DNA of 64,000 nucleotides, taken from positions 1,495-65,494 of the forward strand of contig JBGSPR010000011.1 in NCBI GenBank assembly GCA_041738495.1. The letters are read 5' to 3'. This DNA comes from Patescibacteria group bacterium. GTDB taxonomy: Bacteria; Patescibacteriota; Patescibacteriia; PEXW01. The notes below the pieces were generated by a model, which was given only the letters and a program-made list of their open reading frames with translations, did not search any database and was not told where the DNA came from. Shown in pieces: positions 5,242-61,664 of the stretch. The translations under genes were made by a program, and so were the position numbers. Position 1 is the stretch's first letter, and every line of letters starts with the position of its first letter.

Positions 5242-6291
5242 ATGATCGACAACTACACAGTCATTCGCCTCTTCTTCCTGGCAACCGTGTCGTTCATCGT
5301 CGCCATGGCGTTCACGCCGCTCTGGGCAGGTGTGCTCTACCGCTACCGGTTGGGGAAGAAGATTCGTGCGGCGGCTGATGCCCCCGTGTTCGCGAAGTTC
5401 CATGAGAAGAAGTCTGGAACCCCAACCATGGGCGGGGTCATTGTGTGGCTCACTGCGTTCGTCATTGCCGTGCTGTTCTTCCTCATCCGCCAAATCATCC
5501 CGTCTGGGTTCTGGCACGAGCTCAACTTCCTCACCCGGCAGCAGACCTGGCTCCCCATAGGTGCTCTGGTTGCGTCGGCGCTTGTCGGCTTGGTTGACGA
5601 TTACTTCAACGTTCGGGGTTGGGGCCCGAAAGGTGGCGGACTGCAGGTGCGGCACAAGCTACTCATCTACTCGGCGATCGCTGTGGTCGGGGCGTGGTGG
5701 TTCTTCGCCAAGCTCGGCTTCAGCACCATGCACGTCCCATTCCTCGGAAACTTTGAAATTGGCTGGTGGTACGTGCCGCTCTTCATTGTCGTCATCGTTT
5801 CCACGGCGTTCTCGGTAAACGAAGTGGATGGCCTCGATGGATTGGCCGGGGGAACGCTACTCGCAGCATTCGTGGCATTCGGTGCGATTGCCTTCGTGCA
5901 GGATCGTTTCGAGCTCGCCACGTTCTGCGCGGTCATTGCTGGCGCCTTGCTCGCCTTCCTCTGGTTCAACATCCCACCCGCCCGCTTCTTCATGGGGGAT
6001 ACGGGTGCGATGTCGCTGGGCGTAACCTTAGGTATCGTTGCCATGCTCACGAATACCGCGCTGCTCTTGCCAGTCATTGGGTTGCTGTTCGTCGTGGAAT
6101 CCGCCAGCGTCATTATCCAGGTCGTCTCCAAACGCTTCCGCGGGGTGAAGGTTTTCCAATCAGCGCCGCTCCACCACCACCTCGAAGCCATTGGCTGGCC
6201 AGAGGCGAAGATCGTCATGCGATTCTGGGTTATTGCGGCGGTTACTGCGGTCATTGGCGTCGTCCTGTACCTCGTCGACCACACGCTGTAA
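5242..6291 (+). CDS. mraY: Phospho-N-acetylmuramoyl-pentapeptide transferase MraY
   Basis: Start MIDNYTVIRLFFL at the internal ATG 5242 of ORF 5056..6291; 10-TM MraY signature. The upstream 62 codons look non-coding (divergent promoter region). Confidence 0.92.
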   Translation: MIDNYTVIRLFFLATVSFIVAMAFTPLWAGVLYRYRLGKKIRAAADAPVFAKFHEKKSGTPTMGGVIVWLTAFVIAVLFFLIRQIIPSGFWHELNFLTRQQTWLPIGALVASALVGLVDDYFNVRGWGPKGGGLQVRHKLLIYSAIAVVGAWWFFAKLGFSTMHVPFLGNFEIGWWYVPLFIVVIVSTAFSVNEVDGLDGLAGGTLLAAFVAFGAIAFVQDRFELATFCAVIAGALLAFLWFNIPPARFFMGDTGAMSLGVTLGIVAMLTNTALLLPVIGLLFVVESASVIIQVVSKRFRGVKVFQSAPLHHHLEAIGWPEAKIVMRFWVIAAVTAVIGVVLYLVDHTL

Positions 6292-6332
6292 CCTGCGTCG
6301 ACCACGCTGCACGTGCGTGGTATGCTTCGGGT

Positions 6333-8423
6333 ATGCAGGCTTTTCAGTCCGCGATGCTTGCGGGACTCCCAGGCATAACGCACGGGACTGCATCCCGGTT
6401 CGCACAACCGCTCACCTTTTCTGGCCACCCTGTTCGTCGAGTGCGTGAAGCTCGACGACGCTTCTGCACATCCCTGGGAATTTCGCCAGATCACCTCACG
6501 CTAGGTCGTCAGGTGCACGGAGCCCGTGTTCGCGTCGTGACGGAATCCCACCGTGGCGCGGGAAGCGGCGACCCGGCAACCTACCTAGCCAGCACAGGCG
6601 GTTTACTCACCCAGCGTCCCGGTATTGCCTTGGGAGTGTTCACTGCCGATTGCGTGCCCGTACTCTTGCACGACCCAGTAACCGGGTGGATTGGAGCACT
6701 GCACGTTGGGTGGCGCGGGGCAGTGGCAGGAATCGTTCGTGCCGCAACACACCAGCTCACGCAGCACGGTGTAGACGTTCGTGATGTACGCGTGTGGCTA
6801 GGTCCAGCCATCTGTGGACGCTGCTTCTCTTTCGATAGTGCATCGCAAGCCAAGGATCTCCGCCGAGCATTCTCTGGCGTGGCCGTCCGTGCCCGTGCGG
6901 GTGGCTACACCGCAGATCTCCGCGCGGGCATTCGCCAGCAGTTCATCCGCCTCGGGTACCGCGCTCGTTCCATCGACGTTTCCCCCACGTGCACTGCCGA
7001 GAATCCTGCACTCCCATCCCGACGACGAGATGGCCCAACGCACGCGAATACGCTCAGTGTTATTACGCGGAATGCACTCCCGGGTGACCTGCGTGGAGCG
7101 ACCGTAGCAATCCTCGGCTTCGGCGTGCAGGGAGGAGGGGAATCTGCCCTGCGCTACGCGCTCCGCTCATACGCACAGGAAATTCTCGTTGTGGATGACC
7201 AGCCCCTCCGCACGTTCACAAAAGCTCGGCGTGCGTACCGCGACGTGCGCGTGCGCTGGATGTGCGGTTCGCGTGCAGCGAGTGCGCCGGCACGCGTCGA
7301 CGTTGTCGTGAAGAATCCTGGCGTACCACTCGACCACCCGTACCTGAAACGCGCGCGTGCGGCTGGGGCGCAAGTGTGGACGGACATTGGGATTTTCCGG
7401 GCAACCCATGACAACCCCATTATCGCAGTTACCGGCACGAAGGGAAAAACGACGGTGGCGACGTGGTTAGCCTACGTACTGCGGGCAACGCACCAACGCG
7501 TGGAGCTCGCAGGGAACGTGCGGCGCTCGCCGCTCGACATCGTCAACCTCCCACCTACAACGCCCGTTGTCCTGGAACTCTCGTCGTTCCAGCTGGAAGC
7601 GCTGGAGCAGCCGTTGCGCGCGCGCCTCGCAGTAGTAACCAATCTCTACCCCGACCACCTCAATCGTCACGTGACTATGCGGGCGTACGCGCAGGTGAAA
7701 TCCCGCATTGCAGATGGGCAGAGCCCGCAGGACGCGCTCATCTTGCCTCTGGATAGTGCGTGGGCGCGCAATTACCAAGGTCGTTCGAGAGCGCGCACTT
7801 TGTGGACGGACGCGAAGCCGAACCGTCGCGCGCAGGCGATGGTGCGGGGCGGCTGGATTGTGGTTCGTGGGAAGCGGCTTGTGGAAACGCGTACGCTCCT
7901 GCTCCAGGATGCAGCTAGTCTTCGCAATGCAGTGACGGTCGCACTCGCGGCTATTGAACTGGGTGTGCCGAGAAAGCACGTCGTGGCCCGTCTTCGCTCG
8001 TTCCGCGGTGTACCTGAACGTTTCGAAACCATTCGGGAATTCCGTACGCGGAGGTTCATCAACGATACAACAGCAACGAATCCCGTGGCCACCGCCGTGG
8101 GTTTGCAGAGCGTGCGCAAAGCATTCGTGCTCATTGCAGGAGGTGCGGACAAGGGGTTGCCACTCACGCCGCTCGTCCAGCAAGCGCGCCGCGCTCGAGC
8201 GGTTATCTTGCTGCCTGGCACTGCAACGCCTCGCCTTGCTCGCGCACTGCGCGGGCATCCAGTTGTCCGCGTGGGCTCCATGCGTGCTGCCGTTCAACGA
8301 GCCTGGGGCGCGTCACAGCCAGGGGATGCGATCATCTTGTCACCTGGCGCCGCGAGTTTCGGCCTGTTCACGAATGAGTTTGACCGAGGCGCTCAGTTCA
8401 CCGCTGCAGTGCGCGCGCTATGA
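6333..8423 (+). CDS. murD: Fusion protein: N-terminal PgeF/YfiH (DUF152, Cu-oxidase_4, peptidoglycan editing factor) joined to UDP-N-acetylmuramoyl-L-alanine--D-glutamate ligase MurD
   Basis: Continuous frame from ATG 6333 (MQAFQSAMLAGLPGITHGTASRF..., PgeF-like, including a C-terminal SRRRDG motif). MurD starts with no linker at about 7098 (ATVAILGFGVQGG ... VTGTKGKTT Mur ligase P-loop) and ends with ATGA overlap into ftsW. Confidence 0.85.
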   Translation: MQAFQSAMLAGLPGITHGTASRFAQPLTFSGHPVRRVREARRRFCTSLGISPDHLTLGRQVHGARVRVVTESHRGAGSGDPATYLASTGGLLTQRPGIALGVFTADCVPVLLHDPVTGWIGALHVGWRGAVAGIVRAATHQLTQHGVDVRDVRVWLGPAICGRCFSFDSASQAKDLRRAFSGVAVRARAGGYTADLRAGIRQQFIRLGYRARSIDVSPTCTAENPALPSRRRDGPTHANTLSVITRNALPGDLRGATVAILGFGVQGGGESALRYALRSYAQEILVVDDQPLRTFTKARRAYRDVRVRWMCGSRAASAPARVDVVVKNPGVPLDHPYLKRARAAGAQVWTDIGIFRATHDNPIIAVTGTKGKTTVATWLAYVLRATHQRVELAGNVRRSPLDIVNLPPTTPVVLELSSFQLEALEQPLRARLAVVTNLYPDHLNRHVTMRAYAQVKSRIADGQSPQDALILPLDSAWARNYQGRSRARTLWTDAKPNRRAQAMVRGGWIVVRGKRLVETRTLLLQDAASLRNAVTVALAAIELGVPRKHVVARLRSFRGVPERFETIREFRTRRFINDTTATNPVATAVGLQSVRKAFVLIAGGADKGLPLTPLVQQARRARAVILLPGTATPRLARALRGHPVVRVGSMRAAVQRAWGASQPGDAIILSPGAASFGLFTNEFDRGAQFTAAVRAL

Positions 8424-21127: not shown

Positions 21128-21156
21128 TTGACAGAAAATCAATAAAGTGCTATATT
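21128..21156 (+). promoter_or_regulatory. Near-consensus sigma70 promoter TTGACA-17-(TGc)TATATT
   Basis: TTGACA 21128-33, 17-nt spacer, extended TG at 21148-49, TATATT 21151-56. The first ATG of the downstream gene is at 21165, implying a leaderless or very short leader. Confidence 0.6.
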
Positions 21157-21164
21157 TTACCTAT

Positions 21165-22298
21165 ATGGATGATACTGACCAAAGTCCATCGAACTCCATA
21201 CTCGATCAAGTGCTCTCCAAGAAACAGCTAGACGTCATTGAGCACTTCAGCCCACTCGAGGTTATGGCACAACTCCTGAAACTCCTCACGAGCCGTGAAG
21301 AGGAGGTTTTACGTCGTCGGTACGGACTCCAGGGTAAGGCGCCAGAAACTCTGGAGCACATAGGTGCTCAGTATAACGTTACGCGCGAACGGATTCGGCA
21401 AATCGAATCTGGTGCTGTGCAGAAGTTGCGCAAGCACGGTGATGTCATGCGGATCGTCCGACCAATCGCCGACGCCGTACGCACGCTCCTGGATCAGCAC
21501 GGTGGTGTACTCCGAGAGGACGCACTCTTGCAAAATCTCATAGGCACAGATGACGATGTGCAGACGTCGCAAGCAGCAACGCTCTTCATCATCCGCAACC
21601 TCTTGCACCAGCACGTTCGACCCTACACGTCGGACGAAGCGCACCCAACGTGGCAACTCGTGACAGCGCCGACGCACCTTGTCCGCGAGGTTATGCGACT
21701 CGCACAAGATGCGCTCGCAGCAAAGGAGAAGCCCATTGCTGCTGCAGAACTCCTCACGCTACTACGCGAAACACCTTTCGTACAGGAGCACACGTACCAG
21801 CTGAGTGATGCTGCGTTGCAGTCGTACGTTGATGTGTGCAAGAAGATTGCACGAAATCCTTACGATGAGTACGGGCTCGTGCAGTGGGGGAGTATTGTAC
21901 CAAAGCGCATGAATGATAAAATTTACCTGGTCCTCAAGAAAGCAGGGAAGCCGTTACACTTCAATGAAATTACTAAGCTCATTAACGACACGCACTTTGA
22001 CCATCGTACCGCGTACCCACCTACAGTGCACAACGAGCTCATCTTGAATGATCGGTACGTTCTCGTCGGCCGAGGGATCTACGCCCTCAAAGAGTGGGGC
22101 TACCGTGCAGGGGTTGTTGCAGATATCCTCGTTGACGCACTCACCTCCGCGGGCCAGCCAATGACTCGAGACGCGCTCGTTGAAGCTGTGCTCAAGCAAC
22201 GCCTTGTGAAGCGGAACACCATTCACCTCGCGCTCACTAATCGCAAACGCTTTCAAAAAAACTCTGACGGCACGTACAGCCTCGCGCCGGCAGCCTAA
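21165..22298 (+). CDS. Sigma-70 region-4 (HTH) domain protein with a roughly 280-aa uncharacterised C-terminal domain
   Basis: N-terminal SREEEVLRRRYGLQGKAPETLEHIGAQYNVTRERIRQIESGAVQKLRK is a textbook sigma region 4.2 HTH. No regions 2/3. The ORF tracker start (GTG 21147) overlaps the predicted -10, so ATG 21165 is preferred. Confidence 0.65.
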   Translation: MDDTDQSPSNSILDQVLSKKQLDVIEHFSPLEVMAQLLKLLTSREEEVLRRRYGLQGKAPETLEHIGAQYNVTRERIRQIESGAVQKLRKHGDVMRIVRPIADAVRTLLDQHGGVLREDALLQNLIGTDDDVQTSQAATLFIIRNLLHQHVRPYTSDEAHPTWQLVTAPTHLVREVMRLAQDALAAKEKPIAAAELLTLLRETPFVQEHTYQLSDAALQSYVDVCKKIARNPYDEYGLVQWGSIVPKRMNDKIYLVLKKAGKPLHFNEITKLINDTHFDHRTAYPPTVHNELILNDRYVLVGRGIYALKEWGYRAGVVADILVDALTSAGQPMTRDALVEAVLKQRLVKRNTIHLALTNRKRFQKNSDGTYSLAPAA

Positions 22299-22306
22299 CG
22301 CACACC

Positions 22307-23842
22307 ATGGCCGTTATTGATCTTTCTGGTCTCGTTACGGACTTTCAGAGTTCGTCGGGTAACCCAGCTTCGATGTTCTGGTTCATCTTCCGCAATGGAG
22401 GGTGGCTTGGCGTTGTCATTACCTTACTCGCGGGCTTCAAGTTCTCGTGGCTAGAGTACATCCAGCGTCGGTACATTGCGAAGAACTACGATGGGAAGTA
22501 CGTGGTGCTAGCTATTGACTCACCCAAGAACACCGAGCAAACCCCGAAAGCTGCTGAGCAAATGTTCGCGCACTTTGCGGGCATATCGAAAGGTCCAATT
22601 TTTTCTGAAAAGTGGGGCTTGCCGTTTACCGAATTCTGGAGTTACGGGTTTGTCCCGCCGTCCATGTCTGTTGAAATCGCGAGTCTCGGAGGGTACGTGC
22701 AATTCTTCGTGCGATGTCTCATCGCCCAGCGAGACATCATTGAGGCTGCAGTGTACGCGCAGTACCCTGATGCTGAAATTACCGAAGTTGAAGACTACGT
22801 TGATCTCATGCCGAAACCTCGTGAACTCCCTCACGCCGAATGGGATTGCTGGTCTGCACAGATTTCTTTCCTGCGCCATTCTGCGTACCCCATTCGAACC
22901 TACCCCATGTTCGAGCACGGACTCTCTCAGAAGCTCATCGATCCTATTGCACCACTCATGGAGGTGATGAGTCGCATTAGTCCTGACGAGCAGATGTGGG
23001 TGCAGTGGGTGCTCCAGCAGGACTACCCGCCTGACGAGTGGCGAGAGAAGGGTGAGGGCATTGTCATGAAGCTCATTGGGAAAAAGGGGAAGGCTCCAGC
23101 GAACCCTTGGGATATACCCCGCAAGCTCGGGAAAGATGTATGGGAAGCGGGTACCGCTTCGCTCTTGGGGATTAACCCAGAAAATGAAAGGCAGAAGAAG
23201 GACGATCCTCCTTCCCTCATGCTCCACCTCTCTCCCGGCGAGCGTGACACGGTGACGCAGATGCAGATGAAGCTCTCCAAGGTCGCCTTCAAGTGCAAGA
23301 TGCGCTACATCTACTGGGGGAAAATAACTCCCGGACCGGATGGAAAGAAACCTTTCAATAAGGCTCGTGGTGTGAATGGGTTCCTAGGTTGGCTACGGCA
23401 ATTTGCGATTTCCGACTCGAACTTGTTCAGCGTCTACAAGCAGACGAAAACCGGCGACATCATTTGGTTCAAGAACATGCGCATGCTCGATCGTAAGCGC
23501 CGTAACTTGTACAACTTCCGTAACCGTTCTGCGTGGCGTGGGCGTAAGCCAATTTTCCTCACTGTTGAAGAAATGGCAACGCTCTTTCACTTCCCAATTA
23601 TCGACGTGAAGGCAGCGCAGGTAATGAAGACGGAAACCAAGCGCGCCGGCGCTCCAACGAGTCTCCCGGTTGAAAACCCACTACCCATCCAGAGAGTACG
23701 GGGTGTGAACCTGCAACCCCCACCAGTTGCCGAGCCGCGCGAACCAGCGCTACCCCTCGCGCCCGCCGCCCCTCCCGGTGGCCAAGCTTCGCCTGCCGCG
23801 AAAGAACCGGAAGTGCCCGTCAATCTCCCATTCGTCGAGTAG
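22307..23842 (+). CDS. Membrane-anchored hypothetical protein (single N-terminal TM, large extracytoplasmic or cytoplasmic domain, Pro-rich C-terminus)
   Basis: 511 aa; hydrophobic segment FWFIFRNGGWLGVVITLLAGF; no recognisable family; stop 1 nt before the downstream ATPase start. Confidence 0.5.
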   Translation: MAVIDLSGLVTDFQSSSGNPASMFWFIFRNGGWLGVVITLLAGFKFSWLEYIQRRYIAKNYDGKYVVLAIDSPKNTEQTPKAAEQMFAHFAGISKGPIFSEKWGLPFTEFWSYGFVPPSMSVEIASLGGYVQFFVRCLIAQRDIIEAAVYAQYPDAEITEVEDYVDLMPKPRELPHAEWDCWSAQISFLRHSAYPIRTYPMFEHGLSQKLIDPIAPLMEVMSRISPDEQMWVQWVLQQDYPPDEWREKGEGIVMKLIGKKGKAPANPWDIPRKLGKDVWEAGTASLLGINPENERQKKDDPPSLMLHLSPGERDTVTQMQMKLSKVAFKCKMRYIYWGKITPGPDGKKPFNKARGVNGFLGWLRQFAISDSNLFSVYKQTKTGDIIWFKNMRMLDRKRRNLYNFRNRSAWRGRKPIFLTVEEMATLFHFPIIDVKAAQVMKTETKRAGAPTSLPVENPLPIQRVRGVNLQPPPVAEPREPALPLAPAAPPGGQASPAAKEPEVPVNLPFVE

Positions 23843-23843
23843 C

Positions 23844-25490
23844 ATGCACGACCCCACGAGTATCAACGTCTTCGCCGAAACAAACTACCGCGGACAGCAC
23901 CGGCGTTTTGGCATTAAGGTTGACGACCGACGCCGTCACATGTACTTGGTTGGGAAAACTGGTATGGGCAAGTCGACGGTTATGGAGCGCATGATCGTCA
24001 ATGACATGGTTGCTGGCCACGGTTTGGCGTTGGTTGACCCGCACGGCGACTTGGTGGAAAAAATGCTGCAGTACGTACCAGACCATCGCGTGAACGACGT
24101 CGTGTACTTCAACCCGTCGGACATCGAACACCCGATTGGGTTCAACGTGCTCGAGGCAGTTGATGCAGTGCAGCGACACCTCGTGGCGTCTGGGCTCATG
24201 GGCGTCTTCACGAAGATTTGGGAAGGGGTGTGGAGCGCGCGCATGGAGTACATTCTGAATAACACCATCCTCGCACTGCTCGAGTACCCAGGATCAACAA
24301 TGCTCGGCATCGCGCGCATGCTCGTCGATGGTCGGTACCGCACTCGCGTACTCACCAAAGTGACCGACCCAATTGTGAAGGGGTTTTGGGTGGATGAATT
24401 TGCAAATTACAACGATAAGTTTAGGAATGAGGCTGTGGCGCCTATCCAGAACAAGGTTGGTCAGTTCCTCTCCAGCGCAATCATCCGGAATATCGTTGGT
24501 CAGCCGAAGAGCACCATCGACCTGCGCGACATCATGGACTCGAAGAAAATTCTCCTCCTCAACTTAGCGAAAGGCCGTATTGGTGAGGACAACTCGCGTT
24601 TGCTCGGTGCCATGATGATTACCCGGTTGCAGCTCGCAGCCATGAGTCGTGTGGATATCCCAGAGCCAGAGCGCAGCGACTTTTTCCTCTACGTCGATGA
24701 GTTCCAGAACTTCGCGACGGTGAGCTTCGCGAACATTCTCTCCGAAGCCCGTAAGTACCGACTCAACCTCATCATCGCGCACCAGTACATCGAGCAGCTC
24801 GATGAGAAAGTAGCCCCGGCGGTGTTCGGTAACGTGGGAACCATCATGGCCTTTCGCGTTGGTGGAGCCGATGCAGAGTTTTTGGAAAAAGAGTTCTTCC
24901 CAACGTTCCTGCAAACTGATTTGGTGAATTTGCCGAAGTACGAAGTCTACCTCAAGCTCATGATCGATGGCGTTGCCTCGGAACCGTTTAGCGCCACGAC
25001 CCTCCCACCGACGGAGCTCATCCAGACCAATAATTGGGAGAAAGTAGTTGCCGTATCGCGAGAACGGTACGCACAACGACGTGCAGAAGTGGAGGAAAAA
25101 ATTCTTCGCTGGAGTGGCGTGGAAGATGTGTACCGTTCTGCGGCGCAGGAAGAGAATCTCGCAGCGCAGCAGGAGGAATCCATTTACCGTCCTGAGGGGA
25201 AGCGGCGTCGACCCCCGAAGGATTTATTCCAACGCGACAGCGTAGTGGTGGAGCCCGTCGTGAAGGGTGAGGAGCAGCCCTCGCTTCGTCTCGCTGACCT
25301 CATCCAGCAGCAACCCAGCGCGCCCACTCCTCCACGTCCCGTTACCTCACCACAGTCTCCGGTAGAGCAAAATTCACAGCAAGCGCAGCCAGCGCCCGAG
25401 CGTCCTCAGCAACAAGGGTATCGACCGCAGCGGCCAGATCGGCGACGGCCGCAACGGATGACGCCGTTCGGGAATACTGTGCGTTTCTAG
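23844..25490 (+). CDS. VirD4/TraD/TraG-like type IV coupling protein (T4CP) family P-loop ATPase with Pro/Gln-rich C-terminal tail
   Basis: Start MHDPTSINVF at ATG 23844; Walker A LVGKTGMGKST; Walker B LYVDEFQNF; conserved RKYRLNLIIAHQ motif typical of T4CP/TrwB-like ATPases. Confidence 0.75.
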   Translation: MHDPTSINVFAETNYRGQHRRFGIKVDDRRRHMYLVGKTGMGKSTVMERMIVNDMVAGHGLALVDPHGDLVEKMLQYVPDHRVNDVVYFNPSDIEHPIGFNVLEAVDAVQRHLVASGLMGVFTKIWEGVWSARMEYILNNTILALLEYPGSTMLGIARMLVDGRYRTRVLTKVTDPIVKGFWVDEFANYNDKFRNEAVAPIQNKVGQFLSSAIIRNIVGQPKSTIDLRDIMDSKKILLLNLAKGRIGEDNSRLLGAMMITRLQLAAMSRVDIPEPERSDFFLYVDEFQNFATVSFANILSEARKYRLNLIIAHQYIEQLDEKVAPAVFGNVGTIMAFRVGGADAEFLEKEFFPTFLQTDLVNLPKYEVYLKLMIDGVASEPFSATTLPPTELIQTNNWEKVVAVSRERYAQRRAEVEEKILRWSGVEDVYRSAAQEENLAAQQEESIYRPEGKRRRPPKDLFQRDSVVVEPVVKGEEQPSLRLADLIQQQPSAPTPPRPVTSPQSPVEQNSQQAQPAPERPQQQGYRPQRPDRRRPQRMTPFGNTVRF

Positions 25491-25529: not shown

Positions 25530-26288
25530 ATGCGCATTGTTTCGCTTTCCCCAAGTTCGACGGAAATTGCCTTTGCCCTCGGAGCAGGTGAAGATGTTAT
25601 TGCAGTTACGCACCTGTGCGACTATCCGCTCGCAGCACAGCGACGTGAACGCGTGGGATCCTGGATTCATACTGACGCAGAGCAACTTGCTCATTTACGT
25701 CCAGACATCATTCTCACCACGAACTACGTCCCTGAAGAACTTCGCTCGCACGACGCGCTCTCCCAGCGAGTGCTCACCCTCGAACCATCGAGTCTCGCGA
25801 GCGTTCTCGAGAGCATTCTCGAGGTGGGGTGGCACCTTGGTCGGTACACAGCTGCAGAAGAGCTCGTTGGTGAGATGCAGAAATCTCTGGAGGTGCTCCG
25901 TTCGTCGCAGCCTGCCCACCAACTGCGAGTCTACTGCGAGGAACGCCCGGATCCACCCACACGCGCAGGGTACTGGGTACCGGAACTCGTAGAACTTGCT
26001 GGTGGGATTCCGGTTGGTGGTGTGCATGCAAACCCGAGTAGTCCCGTGCAGGTCGATGCACTGCGAGCAGAGGATCCAGATCTCATGGTTTTCCACTGGT
26101 GCAATCCTGGCGAGTCGCACGACCCGCAGCAGGTAGCTCAGCGGCCTGGCTGGGAGGATTTCCGCGCAGTACGTTCGCAGGCGTTCGCTTTCATCCCGCA
26201 CGACATTCTCAACCGGCCGGGTCCCCGGCTGGTCGATGGGGCACGAGCACTGCAAGGTATCCTCCACGCACACCAGCGTAGCCGCTAG
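25530..26288 (+). CDS. BtuF/TroA-like (cobalamin/siderophore-type) periplasmic-binding-fold protein without signal peptide
   Basis: MRIVSLSPSSTEIAFALGAGEDVIAVTHLCDYP...PDIILTT pattern of class III SBPs; no N-terminal signal; no ABC permease or ATPase partners nearby. Confidence 0.5.
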   Translation: MRIVSLSPSSTEIAFALGAGEDVIAVTHLCDYPLAAQRRERVGSWIHTDAEQLAHLRPDIILTTNYVPEELRSHDALSQRVLTLEPSSLASVLESILEVGWHLGRYTAAEELVGEMQKSLEVLRSSQPAHQLRVYCEERPDPPTRAGYWVPELVELAGGIPVGGVHANPSSPVQVDALRAEDPDLMVFHWCNPGESHDPQQVAQRPGWEDFRAVRSQAFAFIPHDILNRPGPRLVDGARALQGILHAHQRSR

Positions 26289-26328: not shown

Positions 26329-27282
26329 ATGATGCAACGCTCGGTTTCTTTCGTTTGCCCCGCCTACAACGAGCGGGAAAGCCTCCCGGAGCTCATCACA
26401 GAGCTGCGCACACTTGCGAACCAGCACGGCTACCAGTACGAAATCATCATTGTTGATGATGGGTCTTCTGATGCAACGGCGCAGTACCTCCGACGTGAAG
26501 CGCAGGCAGACAGTCGGCTCCACCCCATTATTCTTCGAAGGAATATGGGGAAGGCAACGGCTCTGCACGTGGGCTTCCAGCGTTCGCGCGGGGATGTCGT
26601 CGTGACGCTCGATGCCGATTTGCAGAACGATCCTGGGGAAGTCCCTAAGTTGATAGCGCGCATGGATGAGAGCGGGGCAGACATTGTTACCGGGTGGAAG
26701 TTCGATCGTCCAGACACCCTAGAGAAGCGCTTGCCATCGCGGGTGTTCAACGCCGTGACGCGTACGCTCTCGGGCGTTCGATTGCACGACTTCAACTCTG
26801 GCATCAAGGTGTACACTCGAAGTGCGGCGAGAGCCCTGGATTTGTACGGCGAGCTGCACCGCTACATTCCCATCTTGGCGCACCAGCAAGGTTTCACTAC
26901 CGTCGAGGAGCAGACGCACACCCGCCAGAGGAAGTTTGGTGAAACCAAGTACAAGGGCAAGCGGTACTTCCGTGGGTTCTTCGACCTCATCACCGTTCTC
27001 TTCTTAACCAAGTACAGCCGGCGCCCCCTCCACTTCTTCGGGGGAATTGGCGCACTCCTTGGTGTTGCAGGATCACTTGCCGTTGCGTACCTGCTGGGTG
27101 TGAAGTTCATAGGTGGGGAATCCATTGGCACTCGACCACTCCTCACCTTCGGTATTTTTGCGATTCTCATTGGCTTGCAGCTCGTCGTCACGGGTCTCCT
27201 CGCTGAGCTCATCGTCCGTCACGTTGGGCAGCGCCAGCTCCCGATTCGAGACGAGTGGAATGGGAGTGGCCCCCTTGCCTAA
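26329..27282 (+). CDS. GT2 polyprenyl-phosphate glycosyltransferase (Dpm1/GtrB/ArnC-like) with C-terminal TM helices
   Basis: SFVCPAYNERESL...IIVDDGSSD...TLDADLQNDP (DXD) and two C-terminal TM segments typical of Dpm1/GtrB. Confidence 0.8.
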   Translation: MMQRSVSFVCPAYNERESLPELITELRTLANQHGYQYEIIIVDDGSSDATAQYLRREAQADSRLHPIILRRNMGKATALHVGFQRSRGDVVVTLDADLQNDPGEVPKLIARMDESGADIVTGWKFDRPDTLEKRLPSRVFNAVTRTLSGVRLHDFNSGIKVYTRSAARALDLYGELHRYIPILAHQQGFTTVEEQTHTRQRKFGETKYKGKRYFRGFFDLITVLFLTKYSRRPLHFFGGIGALLGVAGSLAVAYLLGVKFIGGESIGTRPLLTFGIFAILIGLQLVVTGLLAELIVRHVGQRQLPIRDEWNGSGPLA

Positions 27283-29653
27283 GCTCTCACCACGCGTTCG
27301 GCGCCTGCTCACTTTGGCGGTCATCCTCATCGTCACCGGGTTTTTCGTACGTGCGTTTCAGCAAAGCTGGAACCAAGTGCGTGAAGCGTTACGACCGCCG
27401 CACTGGGGATGGCTCGCGGTATCCTTTGTAGGTTTCTCTTCCTACTACGCAGCGCGCATCGCCGGGTGGCGCCGCGTGCTTGCTACCCTTGGCTACCCAC
27501 TACCCCGTCGCGCAGCGGCACGTACGCTCATGCTGTCTGAAGTCACGCGGTACGTTCCTGGAAACGTGTGGAGCGTACTCGGGAGGATAGGGTTGAGTAC
27601 GAAGCAGGGAGTACCAGCAGATCGTGCTGTTGTTGCAACGATAGCCGAAATTCTCGCACTCCTCGCTGCCTCACTGATTGTGGGTGGTGGCCTTGCTGCG
27701 CTCACCGACGAGGTTCCTCGCTGGGTACGTTTCGGCGCAGTCCTGGGTGGGGCAGCGGCACTTGCGTGCGCGCTCGCTTTCCGTAAACTCGAACGACTCG
27801 TGCAGTGGGTATTCCGGCGAGTGCAGAAAGAGGGTGCGCCTCTGCAGTTTCCAGCACGCGCGTTCCTACGCGTTGTTGGAACGTTCGTGTTCGCCTGGGT
27901 AGGATTTTCCGTTGGGAGCTACGCGGTTGCCGCGGCGTTCCTCAAACTCCAGCCCGGGACAGCAATCCTTCTCCTCGCGACGTTCCCCATTGCGTGGTTC
28001 TTGGGGTACGCCAGTTTCGTTACGCCAAGCGGGATTGGGGTTCGCGAAGCTGCCGTTGCCGTACTCCTCGCACCGGTCTACGGTAGTATGGGTGCGATCA
28101 TTGCCACGTACTCGCGCATTGCCATGACGGTTGTAGAGCTCGCTTGGGTTGCTGGAAGCGCGTGGCAGGATGTTGCACATGGCCTGGCGGTGGCCTGGCG
28201 GTGGCTGCGCAGCCCTCGCGGTGTAGTCGTCGTGGTGACGTTCGCGTTTGCCGCGTACTTCAGCGTGGTAACGCTCACCATGCACGCGAAGGTCATTACG
28301 AGCAGATTCGACCTCGGGAACATGACGCAAACCGTTTGGAACACCAGTCAGGGACGATTTTTCGAGTTCACCGATCCGTACGGGACAACGCTCGCGCAGC
28401 GGTTCATCCACCACGCCGACGTCCTCCTCGTGCTCTTCGCGCCACTTTACTGGGTGTACGCGAGTCCCAACGTCCTCCTCGTCGCGCAGGCAGTAATCGT
28501 TGCGCTTGGTGGGTGGCTCGTCTTTCGTCTGGCCAAAAAAGTGCTGGGCCATGAGTGGCTGGCTGCGGTGCTCGCGCTCAGCTACCTCTTCTACCCAACG
28601 TTGCAACGCGCGGTCATGTTCGACTTCCACGCGCTCACATTGGGCGCAACGTTCGCTGTAGGTATGGCGTGGGCGTACGTGGAACGTCGCTGGCGGTGGT
28701 TTGCAGTTTTCGCAGCACTTCTGTGCATGAGCAAGGAAGAACTACCGATCATGGTAGCGAGCTTCGGCGTTCTCATGTTGGTTCGAGAGTGGCGTGATAC
28801 ACGCGTGCGGCGCATTGCCTTCGCAACCGTTGCACTCTCCGTGGTGTACTTTGGATTCACGTACTTCGCCATCATGCCAGCAGCGCGTTCAAACCAACCG
28901 AGTAAGTACGTCGTGCAGTACGACGTTCTCGGAGATACACCTTCGGAGATGGTTCGCACTGCAGTGCAGAATCCTTCGCTGTTGCTTTCCATGATTGCCG
29001 GAAAGCAAGCGCGGCATATGTACGCAGGGCAGCTGGGTCCCGTCGGCTTCTTGCCGCTCGCAAGTCCGGCGTGGCTCGCGTTAGCCTGGCCAGACTACGT
29101 GGTGAATCTTTTCAACGAACGCATTGAACCGCGTTTGATGATCTACCACTACCAAGCGACGATTGGTGGCTTTGTCTTCGTAGCAACGATATTTGGCATT
29201 GCAGCACTTCGCAAACGGGTTGAACCATTCTGGGACAGGAGGATGCGGCGCGTACTCAAGCTTTCCTTTTCCGGAGTGATCATTACGTACCTCGTCGTGG
29301 TTGGAGGAGTGGAGTCGTACCGGTTGAGCCCGATGCCGTACAGCCAAACGCGAGACATGCGCGTGTTCTGGCCGGCACCAATGGCACCTATCATTCACGA
29401 AGCAATCGCACAGGTACCCGATAGCGCTCGTGTTTCAGCAACGAACACAGTTGGCGCGCAGCTCGCGCACCGTCGATTCCTCTACCAATTCCCGCAAGGA
29501 ATTGGTGAGGCCGACTACATTCTCATCCTCCTAGCCAGAGAGGGAACCCTGGAGTGGCAGCGAAACCACGTGCAAGCCGAGGCACTGGAAACCGATGATC
29601 GCTACGAGCGGGTGACGTCGACCAAGAATTTCACCATGTACCGCAAGCGCTAG
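27260..29653 (+). CDS. Fusion membrane protein: N-terminal flippase-like domain (UPF0104/LPG-synthase-TM/YbhN family) joined to C-terminal DUF2079-like large polytopic domain (GT-C-like)
   Basis: Start MGVAPLPKLS at ATG 27260, overlapping the GT2 3' end by 23 nt. First about 330 aa match TIGR00374-like topology; the remainder resembles DUF2079 predicted membrane glycosyltransferases (HHADVLLVLFAPLYWVYASPNVLLVAQ...). Confidence 0.6.
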   Translation: MGVAPLPKLSPRVRRLLTLAVILIVTGFFVRAFQQSWNQVREALRPPHWGWLAVSFVGFSSYYAARIAGWRRVLATLGYPLPRRAAARTLMLSEVTRYVPGNVWSVLGRIGLSTKQGVPADRAVVATIAEILALLAASLIVGGGLAALTDEVPRWVRFGAVLGGAAALACALAFRKLERLVQWVFRRVQKEGAPLQFPARAFLRVVGTFVFAWVGFSVGSYAVAAAFLKLQPGTAILLLATFPIAWFLGYASFVTPSGIGVREAAVAVLLAPVYGSMGAIIATYSRIAMTVVELAWVAGSAWQDVAHGLAVAWRWLRSPRGVVVVVTFAFAAYFSVVTLTMHAKVITSRFDLGNMTQTVWNTSQGRFFEFTDPYGTTLAQRFIHHADVLLVLFAPLYWVYASPNVLLVAQAVIVALGGWLVFRLAKKVLGHEWLAAVLALSYLFYPTLQRAVMFDFHALTLGATFAVGMAWAYVERRWRWFAVFAALLCMSKEELPIMVASFGVLMLVREWRDTRVRRIAFATVALSVVYFGFTYFAIMPAARSNQPSKYVVQYDVLGDTPSEMVRTAVQNPSLLLSMIAGKQARHMYAGQLGPVGFLPLASPAWLALAWPDYVVNLFNERIEPRLMIYHYQATIGGFVFVATIFGIAALRKRVEPFWDRRMRRVLKLSFSGVIITYLVVVGGVESYRLSPMPYSQTRDMRVFWPAPMAPIIHEAIAQVPDSARVSATNTVGAQLAHRRFLYQFPQGIGEADYILILLAREGTLEWQRNHVQAEALETDDRYERVTSTKNFTMYRKR

Positions 29654-29656
29654 CGT

Positions 29657-30736
29657 ATGGCGAGGATTGCGGTTGCCATGTCAGGAGGGGTTGATTCTTC
29701 CGTGACGGCGTACCTCCTGCAACGTGCTGGCCACACGGTACGCGGTGTTTTCATGAAGAACTACGAACCACCACCTCAGAGCAACCAGCCATGCCCGTGG
29801 GAGGCGGATCAAGAAGACGTTCGTCGAGTCTGCGAGCGCTTGGGGGTAACTTGGGAAACTTGGAATTTCGAGAGGGACTACGCTGAGCGAGTGCTGGACT
29901 ACTTCTTCCGCGAGTACAGTGCGGGGCGCACGCCGAATCCCGACGTCATGTGCAATCGTGAGGTCAAGTTTGGCGTCTTCCTCCAACGCGCTCTCAGCGA
30001 AGGCTTCGATGCCATTGCCACTGGTCACTACGCACGAATACGTGAGGTGGGTGGTGCATTCCAGCTCCTCGCCGGCGTAGACCGTGGGAAAGACCAATCG
30101 TACTTCCTGCACGCGCTCAACCAATCTATGCTCAGCAGGACGTACTTTCCCATTGGCAATCACACGAAGACCGAAGTACGTGGTATCGCACGGTCAGCGA
30201 AACTCCCGACAGCAGAAAAACCAGATAGCCAGGGCATATGCTTCGTTGGCAAGGTGAACGTTACGGATTTCCTCAAACAGCACCTCCACGCACTGCCTGG
30301 TCCGGTGGTTACAGCGAGTGGCGCGCGCGTCGGCGAGCACATCGGCTTACCGTACTACACCATTGGGCAGCGACACGGCCTTGGTGTTGGCGGTGGGGTG
30401 CCGTACTACGTTGCTCGGAAAAATCTTCAGAAGAATACCCTCATCGTAGCAGAAGGGGATCGTGACCCCATTCTCTACGCACGGGCACTCGAAGCAACTG
30501 CCCCAACGTGGGTAAGTGGTCAGGTGCCTGGAGAAGAATTCTCCTGCAATGCGCGGATACGCTACCGTCAACCACTCGTGTCGTGTACGGTACGCTCAAG
30601 TGGCGAGACGCTGCACGTTACATTCGCACAACTCCAGCGCGCAATTACACCTGGACAAGCAATCGTTTTCTACGACGAAGACGTGTGCCTGGGTGGAGCC
30701 ACGATTGACCACGTGCTTGAGGAGCGGTCTGCCTAG
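29657..30736 (+). CDS. mnmA: tRNA-specific 2-thiouridylase MnmA
   Basis: MARIAVAMSGGVDSSV PP-loop; catalytic Cys residues; full-length 359 aa. Confidence 0.9.
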   Translation: MARIAVAMSGGVDSSVTAYLLQRAGHTVRGVFMKNYEPPPQSNQPCPWEADQEDVRRVCERLGVTWETWNFERDYAERVLDYFFREYSAGRTPNPDVMCNREVKFGVFLQRALSEGFDAIATGHYARIREVGGAFQLLAGVDRGKDQSYFLHALNQSMLSRTYFPIGNHTKTEVRGIARSAKLPTAEKPDSQGICFVGKVNVTDFLKQHLHALPGPVVTASGARVGEHIGLPYYTIGQRHGLGVGGGVPYYVARKNLQKNTLIVAEGDRDPILYARALEATAPTWVSGQVPGEEFSCNARIRYRQPLVSCTVRSSGETLHVTFAQLQRAITPGQAIVFYDEDVCLGGATIDHVLEERSA

Positions 30737-31506
30737 GGGTTGATGCGCGGTGACTGGCGTGCTTTTTTCCAAGCAAACGCTACCACAGCGACGAGGAGAA
30801 CAATGCCAACAATAATGAGGATGAGCCCTGTTCGGCCATCGCCCGTTTCTTCCGTTGTCGTCGCGTTCACGTTCGTTTGGTCACTCGTTGCATCGAGAAT
30901 ACCAGTGTTCGTATTCTCGTTTGCGTTATCATTGAACACGCTGGTCGTCGTATTTGCATTGGCCGCTGCGTTCACGTTCTTGTTCGCGTTGGTGTTGGTG
31001 TTCCTATTCACGGTTGTGGCGGTATTCGTGTTCTTGTTTGCATTCACGTTCTTGTTCACCGTAGTATTTGTATTCTTATTCACGTTGCTATTTACTGAGG
31101 TATTCGTATTTGCGTTCGCCGTCGCATTGGTATTCGTTGTTGCCGCCGCTGAAGTTGTCAGCGTGGTATCCGTACTCGTTGCCTCATTGCCAGCAGCGTC
31201 TTTTGATCGGACGCGAAAGTGGTACTGCGTCCCGGCGGTGAGACCGAGCAGCGTCACGCTGTGTGCCGTGAGGTACTCGCCACTCCCGAGTGTGTTCCCG
31301 TACACGTCCGTAGGACCAAAATCCACATAACTCGTGGCTGCCTCGTTGGTTGACCAACTCACAACCGCCGTGGATGCGGTAACTGAACTCACCGTAACCC
31401 CGGAAATTGAGGGTTTCGTGACGTCCGTGGCAACATTCGTCTGTGCCAGTGTAGGCTGGACGAGGAGGAAGGCGAGAGTACTCGCGAGGGCAAGCATTTT
31501 GCGCAT
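30733..31506 (-). CDS. Secreted, C-terminally membrane-anchored surface protein: signal peptide, Fn3/PAP-N-like domain, Asn/Thr-rich repeat stalk, TM anchor
   Basis: Preferred start MRKMLALASTLAFLLVQPTLA at 31506 with AAGGA SD. Fn3 motif SWSTNEAATSYVDFG...YHFRVRSKDAAGNE. About 110 aa of NTN/NVN repeats, then LILIIVGIVLLVAVVAFAWKKARQ. Confidence 0.7.
   Translation of the reverse strand: MRKMLALASTLAFLLVQPTLAQTNVATDVTKPSISGVTVSSVTASTAVVSWSTNEAATSYVDFGPTDVYGNTLGSGEYLTAHSVTLLGLTAGTQYHFRVRSKDAAGNEATSTDTTLTTSAAATTNTNATANANTNTSVNSNVNKNTNTTVNKNVNANKNTNTATTVNRNTNTNANKNVNAAANANTTTSVFNDNANENTNTGILDATSDQTNVNATTTEETGDGRTGLILIIVGIVLLVAVVAFAWKKARQSPRINP
30835..31190 (-). repeat. Imperfect tandem nucleotide repeats encoding the Asn/Thr (N-x-T sequon-rich) low-complexity stalk
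   Basis: Repeated gttcacgttcttgtt / gtattcgtgtt-like units are visible on the plus strand; they translate on the minus strand to NKNTNT / NVNAN units. Confidence 0.6.
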
Positions 31507-31549
31507 ATGGTACAATCCTTTCACCTCGTAGTATACACAATACTGCCCT
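31507..31549. promoter_or_regulatory. Divergent promoter region between the Fn3 surface protein and cyclophilin genes
   Basis: TGGTACAAT extended -10 at 31507-31515 on the plus strand, about 35 nt upstream of ATG 31550; TATACT on the opposite strand. Confidence 0.4.
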
Positions 31550-32164
31550 ATGGAAGCAAAACGTGAGTACACGGTAATCGGCGCTGGGGTAGGCATCCTC
31601 ATCGTCATCGCGGCACTCCTCATCTGGTCTGGTTCCTGGTCATCTCGAGACACCGCATCGAATGCGAACTCGCAACCTACACCCCAAACTATGTCCTACA
31701 CGTTTCCTGGCGTACTCGCAGACGAAAAAATCCAGAATAAGAAAGCGGTCATTACGACAGCGAAGGGGGTCATTGAATTCGACCTGCTCGCAGAGGCGGC
31801 GCCAAAATCAGTGAGCAACTTCGTGTACCTCGCGGGTGAAGGCTTCTACGATGGTTTGACCTTCCACCGCGTAGAACCAGGGTTCGTCATCCAGGGTGGG
31901 GACCCCATAGGTACCGGGGGCGGCGGGCCTGGGTACGAGTTTGAAGATGAGCCAGTTGTTGGAGAGTACACCGAAGGGGCAGTTGCAATGGCTAATGCTG
32001 GCCCTGATACGAATGGCTCGCAATTCTTCATTACCCTAGGTGACCAGAGCACGAACCTCACGAAGAGTTACAACCTCTTCGGGCGTGTGACGAAAGGTAT
32101 GGAAGTCGTGAAGTCCATCGCCGTAGGCGATGTCATGGACACCGTGCACGTTGTCTCACGGTAG
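31550..32164 (+). CDS. Cyclophilin-type peptidyl-prolyl cis-trans isomerase with N-terminal membrane anchor
   Basis: TM helix GVGILIVIAALLIW, then a cyclophilin core (FHRVEPGFVIQGGDP...GAVAMANAGPDTNGSQFFITLG). Confidence 0.85.
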   Translation: MEAKREYTVIGAGVGILIVIAALLIWSGSWSSRDTASNANSQPTPQTMSYTFPGVLADEKIQNKKAVITTAKGVIEFDLLAEAAPKSVSNFVYLAGEGFYDGLTFHRVEPGFVIQGGDPIGTGGGGPGYEFEDEPVVGEYTEGAVAMANAGPDTNGSQFFITLGDQSTNLTKSYNLFGRVTKGMEVVKSIAVGDVMDTVHVVSR

Positions 32165-49883: not shown

Positions 49884-50681
49884 CTAGAGGTCGAGAACAG
49901 TGACGACGCTGAGTTTTTCGTAGGCAACTGTTGGAATGATGCTCGCGGTTTGGAACAAGTCGCCGGCGACCTCTTCGAGGTTTGCAATTTTTCCAACAAC
50001 CAGGCTACTCGGAATTCGCGGGTCAATATCTGACGTGAGCACGAGCTGCTCTTCGGCAATACTCTGGTTCTTCGGCACGAGTGTGAGCTTCATGCCCACA
50101 CCACGCTCGCCAACGAGTACACCCGAGGGACCATCCTGGCGGTCGACGCGAACGGCAATGTCTGTCCCTTCTGCGGTGAGGAGGCGAACTTCAGCGGTAG
50201 CTGGCCCGGCTGCGATGATGGTGCCGATGAGAATGCCATCGTGAGCAATGACGGGCGCTCCTGATCGCACGCCTTGCACCGTCCCGATATCAATGAGCAA
50301 CACTTGCGCACTGGACTGCGATCGGCCGAGGACACGGCCAGGTACGCCACTGAGCGACTTGCGGTTGAGGAAATCTGTTTCCGCGCGGAGGAGCTTGAGA
50401 TCGACGAGTTGCTTATCGAGGGTGGTTCGCTCCAGCTCAAGCTGGACGATGCGATTCTGCAAGCTCGCGTTCTCCTCCGCGAGCTCTTCAACAGACGAGC
50501 GGTGTGAGAACACCCCTCCTACCCACTGCACGACGTCGTACGCAACCCGGCCAACCGGCGTGAGGATGGGCGCGGTCACGCGCTGGAGAGGTTTGAGGAA
50601 ACCAAGGCTGAGCAAGAGCGCAGCTGCAACGAGGACGACGACTGACCAACCTACTGGGGAAAGGCGAACTGGTCCTGGCAT
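49884..50681 (-). CDS. mreC: Rod shape-determining protein MreC
   Basis: Start MPGPVRLSPVGW at 50681; TM, coiled-coil, then beta-domain GAPVIAHDGILIGTIIAAG. Confidence 0.75.
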   Translation of the reverse strand: MPGPVRLSPVGWSVVVLVAAALLLSLGFLKPLQRVTAPILTPVGRVAYDVVQWVGGVFSHRSSVEELAEENASLQNRIVQLELERTTLDKQLVDLKLLRAETDFLNRKSLSGVPGRVLGRSQSSAQVLLIDIGTVQGVRSGAPVIAHDGILIGTIIAAGPATAEVRLLTAEGTDIAVRVDRQDGPSGVLVGERGVGMKLTLVPKNQSIAEEQLVLTSDIDPRIPSSLVVGKIANLEEVAGDLFQTASIIPTVAYEKLSVVTVLDL

Positions 50682-50682
50682 A

Positions 50683-57849: not shown

Positions 57850-57855
57850 ACAGGG

Positions 57856-58869: not shown

Positions 58870-58870
58870 G

Positions 58871-60820: not shown

Positions 60821-60829
60821 AGGGTGGTG

Positions 60830-61660: not shown

Positions 61661-61664
61661 GGCG

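Follow-up and report, generated by a model that had tools for sequence, protein, structure and literature searches.

In a 64,000-nt stretch of DNA from a Patescibacteria group bacterium (contig JBGSPR010000011.1; this whole stretch is called the window below), two overlapping genes on the forward strand encode a family 2 glycosyltransferase (GT2; 26329..27282) and a 797-aa fusion of an MprF-type lipid translocase domain with a DUF2079 domain predicted to adopt the GT-C fold (27260..29653). We propose that, on balance, this gene pair probably represents a compacted three-component system for extracytoplasmic glycosylation in Patescibacteria (candidate phyla radiation, CPR). At the cytoplasmic face, the membrane-anchored GT2 would place one sugar from a nucleotide sugar onto polyprenyl phosphate, and its sequence argues strongly for such a polyprenyl-phosphate-sugar synthesis, like that of ArnC, GtrB and Dpm1. 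The N-terminal MprF-type domain of the fusion protein would then carry a lipid-linked substrate, most likely the polyprenyl-phosphate sugar, to the outer leaflet, and we regard this as the weakest step of the scheme. The DUF2079 GT-C domain would finally take the sugar off its lipid carrier and attach it to an acceptor outside the cytoplasm, for which wall polymer, surface protein and membrane glycolipid are candidates. The fold invoked for this last step comes from a structural model, and glycosyltransferase chemistry is presumed. With the second and third steps fused, the transferase would receive the flipped donor directly. The first and third steps are proposed because of family and fold assignments together with gene linkage, and the make-flip-transfer reading as a whole is the one best supported by the Pfam matches, the recurrent fusion, the GT-C fold, the type of the GT2 and its adjacency to the fusion gene.

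The GT2 gene encodes a protein of 317 aa. For the fusion gene, the mechanically called open reading frame (ORF) starts with a GTG at 27113 and ends at 29653, and a start at the ATG at 27260 gives a product of 797 aa, with ~17 transmembrane (TM) helices, whose coding sequence overlaps the end of the GT2 gene by 23 nt (27260..27282). The ATG start is preferred because fusion homologs from independent assemblies are 793–810 aa long and align from residue 1. The ORF list thus agrees with the first-pass annotation of this DNA in the coordinates of both ORFs, the length of the product and the size of the overlap. The overlap, which also occurs in close relatives (23 nt in locus L001 and 17 nt in L002), suggests that the two genes are translationally coupled.

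The GT2 matched PF00535 in Pfam (E = 1.9e-32). Its top match in NCBIfam was ArnC (PRK10714, E = 7.7e-55, 186 bits, aa 4–297 of 317), followed by PgfS, AglJ and PpgS, all of which are polyprenyl- or dolichyl-phosphate sugar synthases. None of the NCBIfam matches reached equivalog level; a score of 186 bits against the ArnC cutoff of 529 indicates that the protein is not ArnC itself, and the other matches were also below their cutoffs. These family matches do not reveal the sugar specificity. A sequence search of the PDB gave ArnC (9hwj, E = 1.2e-49, aa 4–297), GtrB sll0501 (5ekp, E = 2e-21, aa 6–297) and the dolichyl-phosphate mannose synthase (DPMS) of Pyrococcus (PfDPMS, 5mlz, E = 5e-18), and the two C-terminal hydrophobic helices of the GT2 (approximately aa 236–258 and 270–295) both lie within the ArnC and GtrB alignments. 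The translation contains a VDDGSSD motif (aa 42–48) and a DXD-type motif, DAD (aa 95–97; 26611..26619), and DXD motifs have an established role in GT-A enzymes. The GT2 is thus predicted to belong with the ArnC/GtrB/DPMS enzymes and to combine a cytoplasmic GT-A domain with two C-terminal TM helices. The first-pass annotation had described it as a GT2 with the C-terminal TM helices of a polyprenyl-phosphate sugar synthase, and the end-to-end ArnC and GtrB alignments, helices included, support that description.

The C-terminal domain of the fusion protein (aa 311–797; 28190..29653) has nine TM helices. PF09852 (DUF2079) matched aa 344–757 with E = 1.9e-61 and 209 bits, against a gathering score of 28.2, and covered profile positions 4–422 of 459; the resemblance to DUF2079 previously suggested for the remainder of the protein is therefore well founded. 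An AlphaFold model of aa 310–797, built on a 34-sequence alignment that included unfused DUF2079 proteins, had a pLDDT of 95.9 and a pTM of 0.94. The top 32 Foldseek matches of this model in the PDB were GT-C-fold proteins without exception, with STT3 (E = 2e-6), PglB (E = 4e-4) and ArnT (5f15, E = 7e-4) accompanied by ALG12, ALG9, ALG3, DPY19, AftA, AftD, EmbC, Pmt and the non-enzymatic PIG-U (8imx_U, E = 0.037). The best of these matches had query-normalised TM-scores of 0.45–0.54 and sequence identities of 9–13%. The similarity is thus one of fold, and none of the GT-C families with solved structures is a near relative of DUF2079. As modelled, the DUF2079 domain has a GT-C fold, and the matches to ArnT, PglB, AftD and other GT-C structures bear out the GT-C-like fold anticipated for it. 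DUF2079, which we take to belong to Pfam's GT-C clan, also co-occurs with a PF13231 match in one family member (P0115). In some DUF2079 proteins, such as P0130 and P0138 (790 aa), the C-terminus bears an alpha/beta-hydrolase (Peptidase_S9/esterase-like) domain; P0130 (1103 aa) combines PF03706, DUF2079 and the alpha/beta hydrolase in one protein.

Just past the first TM helix of the GT-C domain, as located from the alignment and the helix positions, lies an RFDLGNM motif (aa 349–355; 28304..28324). Its D351 is invariant across the 34 fused and unfused DUF2079 members, as are Q357, W360, H385, Q410, H457, E493 and R738. The conserved polar residues D351, H385, D387, D455/H457 and K492/E493 are all located on the predicted outer face. 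GT-C active sites are characterised by an acidic residue where external loop 1 begins, and by analogy D351 is a candidate for the catalytic or metal-binding Asp of this loop.

The N-terminal domain (aa 1–310; 27260..28189) was assigned from Pfam, Foldseek and loop charges. PF03706 (LPG_synthase_TM) matched aa 21–283 with E = 1.1e-13 and 51.8 bits, above the gathering score of 33.4, over profile positions 4–288 of 302. The first-pass annotation had likened this third of the protein to the UPF0104/YbhN family; the PF03706 match upholds the assignment, whereas TIGR00374 gave no match to the fusion protein at E ≤ 0.01 in NCBIfam, where only NF046093 matched. When the full-length model was compared with the PDB using Foldseek, it matched MprF of three species (7duw_A, E = 6e-5, as well as 9j8q_A, 7f47, 9goe_A and 6lvf_A) with a probability of 1.00 and E-values of 6e-5 to 7.5e-4, four of these structures having E-values between 6e-5 and 3e-4. 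The TM-scores to MprF were low, at 0.25–0.27, because the query and the targets are two-domain proteins. The most conserved stretch of the domain is a TPSGIGVRE motif (aa 255–263; 28022..28048), in which P256, G258, G260, R262 and E263 are invariant, and its use as a search pattern recovered relatives of the fusion protein. From these matches the N-domain is predicted to be an MprF-type (UPF0104, or PplT) lipid translocase domain.

The full-length AlphaFold2 model, built on 23 fused homologs, had a pLDDT of 82.8 and a pTM of 0.77. Its Foldseek matches in the PDB fell into two groups, MprF and GT-C enzymes (STT3, ALG12, ALG9, ArnT, DPY19, PglB, AftA and AftD), with little else. Topology was derived from the helix positions in the model and the distribution of charges in the loops. 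The N-domain is predicted to begin and end inside the cell, with approximately eight TM helices and a helical hairpin. The first TM helix of the C-domain (aa 319–343) leads into a long external loop (aa 344–402) with two short helices and a small hairpin, followed by eight further TM helices, a large external loop at aa 543–632 and an external C-terminal alpha/beta domain at aa 690–797. The cytoplasmic loops are strongly positive (RLAKK, ERR, REWRDTRVRR and RKRVEPFWDRRMRR), and this positive-inside pattern assigns the domain junction to the cytoplasm and external loop 1 to the outer side, an arrangement that makes the two domains topologically compatible.

The ORF of the fusion protein is uninterrupted in the window, and the fusion recurs widely. 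Approximately 30 full-length fused clusters, with identities from 98% to 27%, were found in the protein database (NCBI, ENA, JGI and Logan assemblies), and independent assemblies contain equally long products at identities down to 25%. A scan of GTDB, with one genome per species, found 456 relatives; among the best 80 of these 456 loci, which were examined, approximately 70–74 carry the fusion. The fused loci belong mostly to Levybacteria/Microgenomates, with others in Saccharimonadales and other Patescibacteria, and outside Patescibacteria in one Ktedonobacterales (L065) and one Thermoleophilia (L083). An exhaustive search with the DUF2079 domain retrieved 8,242 representative clusters at E ≤ 1e-3, a stricter limit of E ≤ 1e-10 leaving 4,485, and the N-domain was present by hidden Markov model in 82 of 266 retrieved family members. 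On a rough neighbor-joining tree of the C-domains, the fused state required at least 18 changes, compared with 58–68 with shuffled labels, a count that is inflated by partial gene calls and is not used to derive a number of fusion events. The fused state is strongly clustered on this tree, but does not form a single clean clade. That an assembly or frameshift artefact has joined two genes is an explanation to which we give next to no credence. The PF03706 and DUF2079 regions of L083 are in different frames, so split versions or sequencing frameshifts do exist; against this stand the intact ORF in the window, the products of equal length in NCBI, ENA, JGI and Logan assemblies at 98% to 25% identity, and the presence of both domains in 82 of the 266 family members. 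The artefact explanation was rejected on these grounds. An artefact was what the first-pass annotation had named in advance as a danger, and the fusion it described is confirmed as genuine by the recurrence in dozens of independent assemblies.

Linkage to GT2 genes was investigated by tblastn with the window GT2, within 6 kb of the fusion gene. A full-length ArnC-like GT2 (39–74% identity) adjoins the fusion gene in approximately 18 of approximately 74 fused loci, mostly directly upstream and once directly downstream (L061). These loci include fusions that are 27–31% identical to the window protein, and the Ktedonobacterales locus L065. For a gene that is present once or a few times per ~1-Mb genome, such adjacency in distant lineages is far above chance. 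In the Thermoleophilia locus L083, the GT2 lies one gene away with a GT4 in between, in the order GT2-GT4-PF03706-DUF2079 (L083 3723..8474); this locus comes from a nanopore-derived metagenome-assembled genome, so the difference in frame between PF03706 and DUF2079 could reflect either a genuine split or a frameshift error. Unfused DUF2079 genes in Actinomycetota occur in GT2-GT4-DUF2079 operons (L084 3271..7395 and L086 2915..6431), the former with an additional methyltransferase and the latter flanked by GT87 and Mannosyl_trans2 GT-C genes, which hint at a glycolipid pathway. Operons of unfused DUF2079 with GT2 include some from Gaiellaceae. Among the 22 GT2-containing loci, no sugar-nucleotide enzyme was consistently linked. 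Beside unfused DUF2079, a separate flippase was sought in the upstream proteins of 354 aa (L085) and 323 aa (L087), which gave no Pfam match, and the L085 protein showed no similarity to the N-domain of the fusion.

In 20 Levybacteria loci, a co-directional gene directly upstream of the fusion gene encodes a protein of 190–210 aa (L003 4429..4992; L029 4588..5202) with an N-terminal TM anchor, a Thr/Pro-rich linker and a beta-rich domain of ~100 aa containing two conserved Cys. It had no Pfam match and no homolog in the window, and is a candidate acceptor or accessory subunit.

Several results weigh against the make-flip-transfer reading. The structural matches of the C-domain are at the level of fold only (TM-score ~0.5, 9–13% identity). 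When the PDB was searched by phmmer and by profile, with queries comprising the fusion protein, its N-domain by itself and a profile of the N-domain, no GT-C sequence was recovered and MprF gave no match at E ≤ 10. An hhalign comparison of DUF2079 with the PMT_2 family of a second GT-C gene in the window (3118..4980, described below) was weak (probability 26.5%, E = 7e-4); it paired D455/H457 with the invariant D193 of PMT_2 and K492 with K233. A full-text literature search on DUF2079 found no paper, and a search on AZOBR_p60025 found nothing. Approximately 55 of the ~74 fused loci, mostly from one Levybacteria clade, have no ArnC-like GT2 within 6 kb, and the conserved neighbors in the Levybacteria loci without GT2 are an ATP-cone/Mrr protein, DinB and a MacB-type ABC transporter. 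The unfused DUF2079 operons L084 and L086 have no adjacent PF03706 gene. In the window itself, the pair is located within a long co-directional run extending from a periplasmic-binding-protein gene to mnmA, which makes the operon context little informative. Finally, the substrates of MprF-type domains in experiments are all glycerophospholipids (PMC11980842, 10.1101/2022.03.11.483950). The make-flip-transfer logic put forward in the first-pass annotation therefore stands with respect to families, fold and linkage; the polyprenyl-phosphate sugar as the flipped substrate is a supposition, and the adjacent GT2 is missing from about three quarters of the fused loci.

Since the known substrates of MprF-type domains are glycerophospholipids, the N-domain might move the acceptor lipid instead of the donor. 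In this main rival to the make-flip-transfer reading, which we consider somewhat unlikely, the flippase-like domain handles the acceptor or product, translocating a glycerolipid or glycolipid, such as the product of a cytoplasmic GT4, that is then decorated on the outer leaflet by the fused GT-C, and the polyprenyl-phosphate-sugar donor would reach the outside by another route. GT-C enzymes with lipid acceptors have a precedent in ArnT, and in Actinomycetota a GT4 is located between the GT2 and DUF2079 (L083, L084 and L086), with GT87 and Mannosyl_trans2 flanks in L086 that are typical of glycolipid pathways. MprF has been described as a promiscuous, energy-independent scramblase of many phospholipids, including lysyl- and alanyl-phosphatidylglycerol (PG) and many NBD-phospholipids (PMC11980842), and a diacylglycerol-based lipid, GlcN-PG, was proposed as the substrate of GpgF, the partner of the GT4 GpgS (PMC12713373). 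However, in the window and approximately 18 other loci the sole conserved partner of the fusion is the ArnC-like GT2, without a GT4, which fits a minimal make-flip-transfer set. The archaeal fusion of the same UPF0104 domain to the dolichyl-phosphate-mannose synthase AglD (PMC5898192, PMC3871713) also argues against the acceptor as substrate, as it implies a polyprenyl substrate in Archaea. The specific proposal that the MprF-type (PplT) domain is devoted to translocating polyprenyl-phosphate sugars, and is physically coupled to a GT-C so that flipping and transfer are channelled within one polypeptide, is put forward tentatively, as a possibility.

The one line of evidence pointing to a lipid-phosphate-linked donor for DUF2079 is its gene linkage to the ArnC-like GT2, and the two genes could instead be neighbors and not partners. 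The GT2 would then feed another GT-C, such as the PMT_2 protein encoded at 3118..4980, which has no GT2 of its own nearby, and the fusion protein would use a different donor, either a polyprenyl-diphosphate-linked glycan or one that is synthesised elsewhere. In favor of this, no GT2 adjoins the fusion gene in most fused loci, and the strongest fold matches of the C-domain are oligosaccharyltransferases, which use diphosphate-linked donors. We nevertheless regard this as improbable, given that the overlap is kept in the close relatives L001 and L002, that the GT2 is adjacent in Ktedonobacterales, and that operon linkage is found in Thermoleophilia and, with unfused DUF2079, in Gaiellaceae. A further alternative, to which we assign a low likelihood, is that DUF2079 has a GT-C fold and is no glycosyltransferase, acting as a glycan polymerase or ligase, a lipid-phosphate handler or a PIG-U-like scaffold. 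The presence of non-enzymatic PIG-U among the fold matches (E = 0.037), the hydrolase domains of P0130 and P0138 and the failure of the literature search to find an assayed member are in keeping with it, but the invariant D351 after the first TM helix and the invariant H385, H457, E493 and R738 match the layout of GT-C active sites on the outer face, and linkage to a polyprenyl-phosphate-sugar synthase gene is repeated.

The make-flip-transfer reading has parallels in several systems in which a polyprenyl-phosphate monosaccharide, made by a GT2 with C-terminal TM helices, is flipped by a membrane protein before a GT-C transfers the sugar outside (PMC11127046, PMC8035078). The window pair resembles GtrA/GtrB/GtrC, CsbB/GtcA/YfhO, GtlA/GtlB, GacI/J/K/L and the GT136 pentofuranose system in that its GT2 aligns with GtrB (5ekp). 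The flippase candidates of those systems are separate GtrA, SMR, MATE or Wzx proteins, whereas that of the window is a fused MprF-type PF03706 domain, and the GT-C of the window is DUF2079, which is absent from the families used there. ArnC/ArnE-ArnF/ArnT offers another parallel, with ArnC being the closest relative of the window GT2 and ArnT being among the fold matches of the C-domain; its flippase, unlike that of the window, is an SMR heterodimer. No ArnA, ArnB or ArnD gene was found among the Pfam-scanned genes of the window, a scan outside which ~12 larger ORFs fall, and to our knowledge lipid A is not expected in Patescibacteria.

The same three families as in the window, a Dpm1-like GT2, UPF0104/PF03706 and a PMT/STT3-like GT-C, are predicted to cooperate in Archaea (PMC5898192), where the parallel is AglD/AglR/AglS. 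In Haloferax, AglD makes dolichyl-phosphate mannose, which the GT-C AglS then uses outside the cell, and AglR is also part of the system (PMC3871713). A neighborhood of UPF0104, PMT/STT3-like and AglD-like GT2 genes was predicted in Archaea by Makarova et al. (arCOG00899, arCOG00563 and arCOG00897; PMC5898192). The archaeal flippase-like domain is fused to the GT2 synthase, whereas that of the window is fused to the GT-C, is bacterial (CPR) and is joined to DUF2079. MprF shares with the fusion protein the PF03706 membrane family and the joining of a lipid-modifying enzyme to a translocase; the enzyme domain of MprF is cytoplasmic and acts before flipping, whereas that of the window protein is predicted to act after flipping, on the outer face. 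The PplT domain is fused to many enzymes, and a DUF2079/GT-C fusion is not named among the prevalent architectures in the first of three parts of the same source (10.1101/2022.03.11.483950). Other partners of the MprF-type domain are lipid-modifying enzymes such as GpgS/GpgD, and UPF0104-type predicted flippases are encoded with lipid-modifying glycosyltransferases in GpgSDF (GlcN-PG of P. aeruginosa) and HexSDF (C. difficile) (PMC12713373). Like the window, GpgSDF and HexSDF place a UPF0104-type domain alongside glycosyltransferases, but they use a cytoplasmic GT4 and a deacetylase, with neither a GT-C nor a polyprenyl-phosphate-sugar synthase. What is new in the window is thus an MprF-type flippase candidate, fused to the GT-C and not to the synthase, with DUF2079 as the GT-C; no new principle is involved.

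For the flippases proposed for polyprenyl-phosphate monosaccharides (GtrA, ArnE/F, GtcA, Rv3789 and MATE/Wzx-like proteins), flipping has not been shown biochemically (PMC11127046). A natural fusion of a flippase-like domain to the GT-C that would consume the donor is strong genetic evidence of a functional link, and with both activities predicted in a single polypeptide the protein lends itself to studies of how flipping and transfer are coupled. The fusion also offers a concrete, testable function for the large DUF2079 family. If the N-domain is a polyprenyl-phosphate-sugar translocase, it would be the first genetically obvious and biochemically tractable undecaprenyl-phosphate-sugar flippase, the range of the MprF flippase family would widen from glycerophospholipids to polyprenyl carriers, and a function would be assigned to more than 8,000 DUF2079 sequence clusters. 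If it moves glycerolipid acceptors, the protein would be a more ordinary addition to the PplT fusions. CPR bacteria, which are uncultivated and small in genome, rely on contacts between their cell surface and their hosts, and a compact surface-glycosylation module that is widely conserved in Levybacteria and their relatives may shape the envelope or adhesins.

A second GT-C gene of the window, on the reverse strand (3118..4980), matched PMT_2 (PF13231, E = 5.4e-13) in Pfam, with no PF02366, MIR or NCBIfam match. The earlier label of a GT39 Pmt-like gene is not sustained by a match to PF13231 only; NCBI labels homologs of this protein 'glycosyltransferase family 39 protein', and some have precomputed PF02366 matches. 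The protein is best described from its sequence as a PMT_2/ArnT-type GT-C. Of the earlier proposal of two periplasmic-face glycosylation routes, the presence of at least two GT-C enzymes in the window holds, whereas the GT39 label does not and only one ArnC-type GT2 is present, so that both GT-Cs might share one lipid-linked donor. The PMT_2 gene adjoins pilB (T2SSE, 1333..3060) and pilC (T2SSF, 113..1330) on the same strand, and this position suggests, by analogy with TfpW of P. aeruginosa, that its product may glycosylate pilin.

The gene pair and its neighbors form part of a long co-directional run on the forward strand. A Peripla_BP_2 gene (25530..26288) directly precedes the GT2 gene and is itself preceded by a gene for a type IV secretion system coupling protein-like ATPase (TrwB/VirD4-like; 23727..25490); mnmA (29657..30736) follows the fusion gene, with a terminator-like hairpin after it (30745..30762). 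In L001 (1..4230) and L002 (1..3782), the upstream order is a sigma-70-like/HARE-HTH protein, a protein of ~510 aa and a TrwB/VirD4-like coupling ATPase, and in the window (21147..25490, forward strand) ORFs of matching length (383 and 511 aa) are found upstream of the Pfam-scanned coupling ATPase. One gene downstream of the fusion, on the opposite strand (30733..31653), a 306-aa protein, anchored by a C-terminal TM helix, contains an fn3 domain and a long low-complexity region that is rich in Asn and Thr and has many N-x-T/S sequons, with homologs in the same position in L001 and L002; that it could be a glycosylation substrate is pure speculation.

The remainder of the window is housekeeping in character (PilB/PilC, MurD/FtsW/MurG/MurC/MurB, SecA, MreB/MreC, PBP2 and tRNA synthetases), and the gene set is that of a peptidoglycan-containing bacterium with type IV pili. 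The GC content is ~58%, the closest relatives are labelled Patescibacteria, and an Rfam scan of the window gave no match. One uninterrupted ORF on the forward strand (5766..8423) encodes a Cu-oxidase_4/YfiH-type domain (aa 224–432) followed by a complete MurD (aa 446–860), and represents either a fusion or two same-frame genes with an internal start. On the reverse strand, a small glycan-related cluster (56641..63945) contains a GT4, an MreB paralog, DUF4012, two GT2 genes and a 456-aa protein without a family match. A second MreB is encoded together with MreC at 49884..51747.

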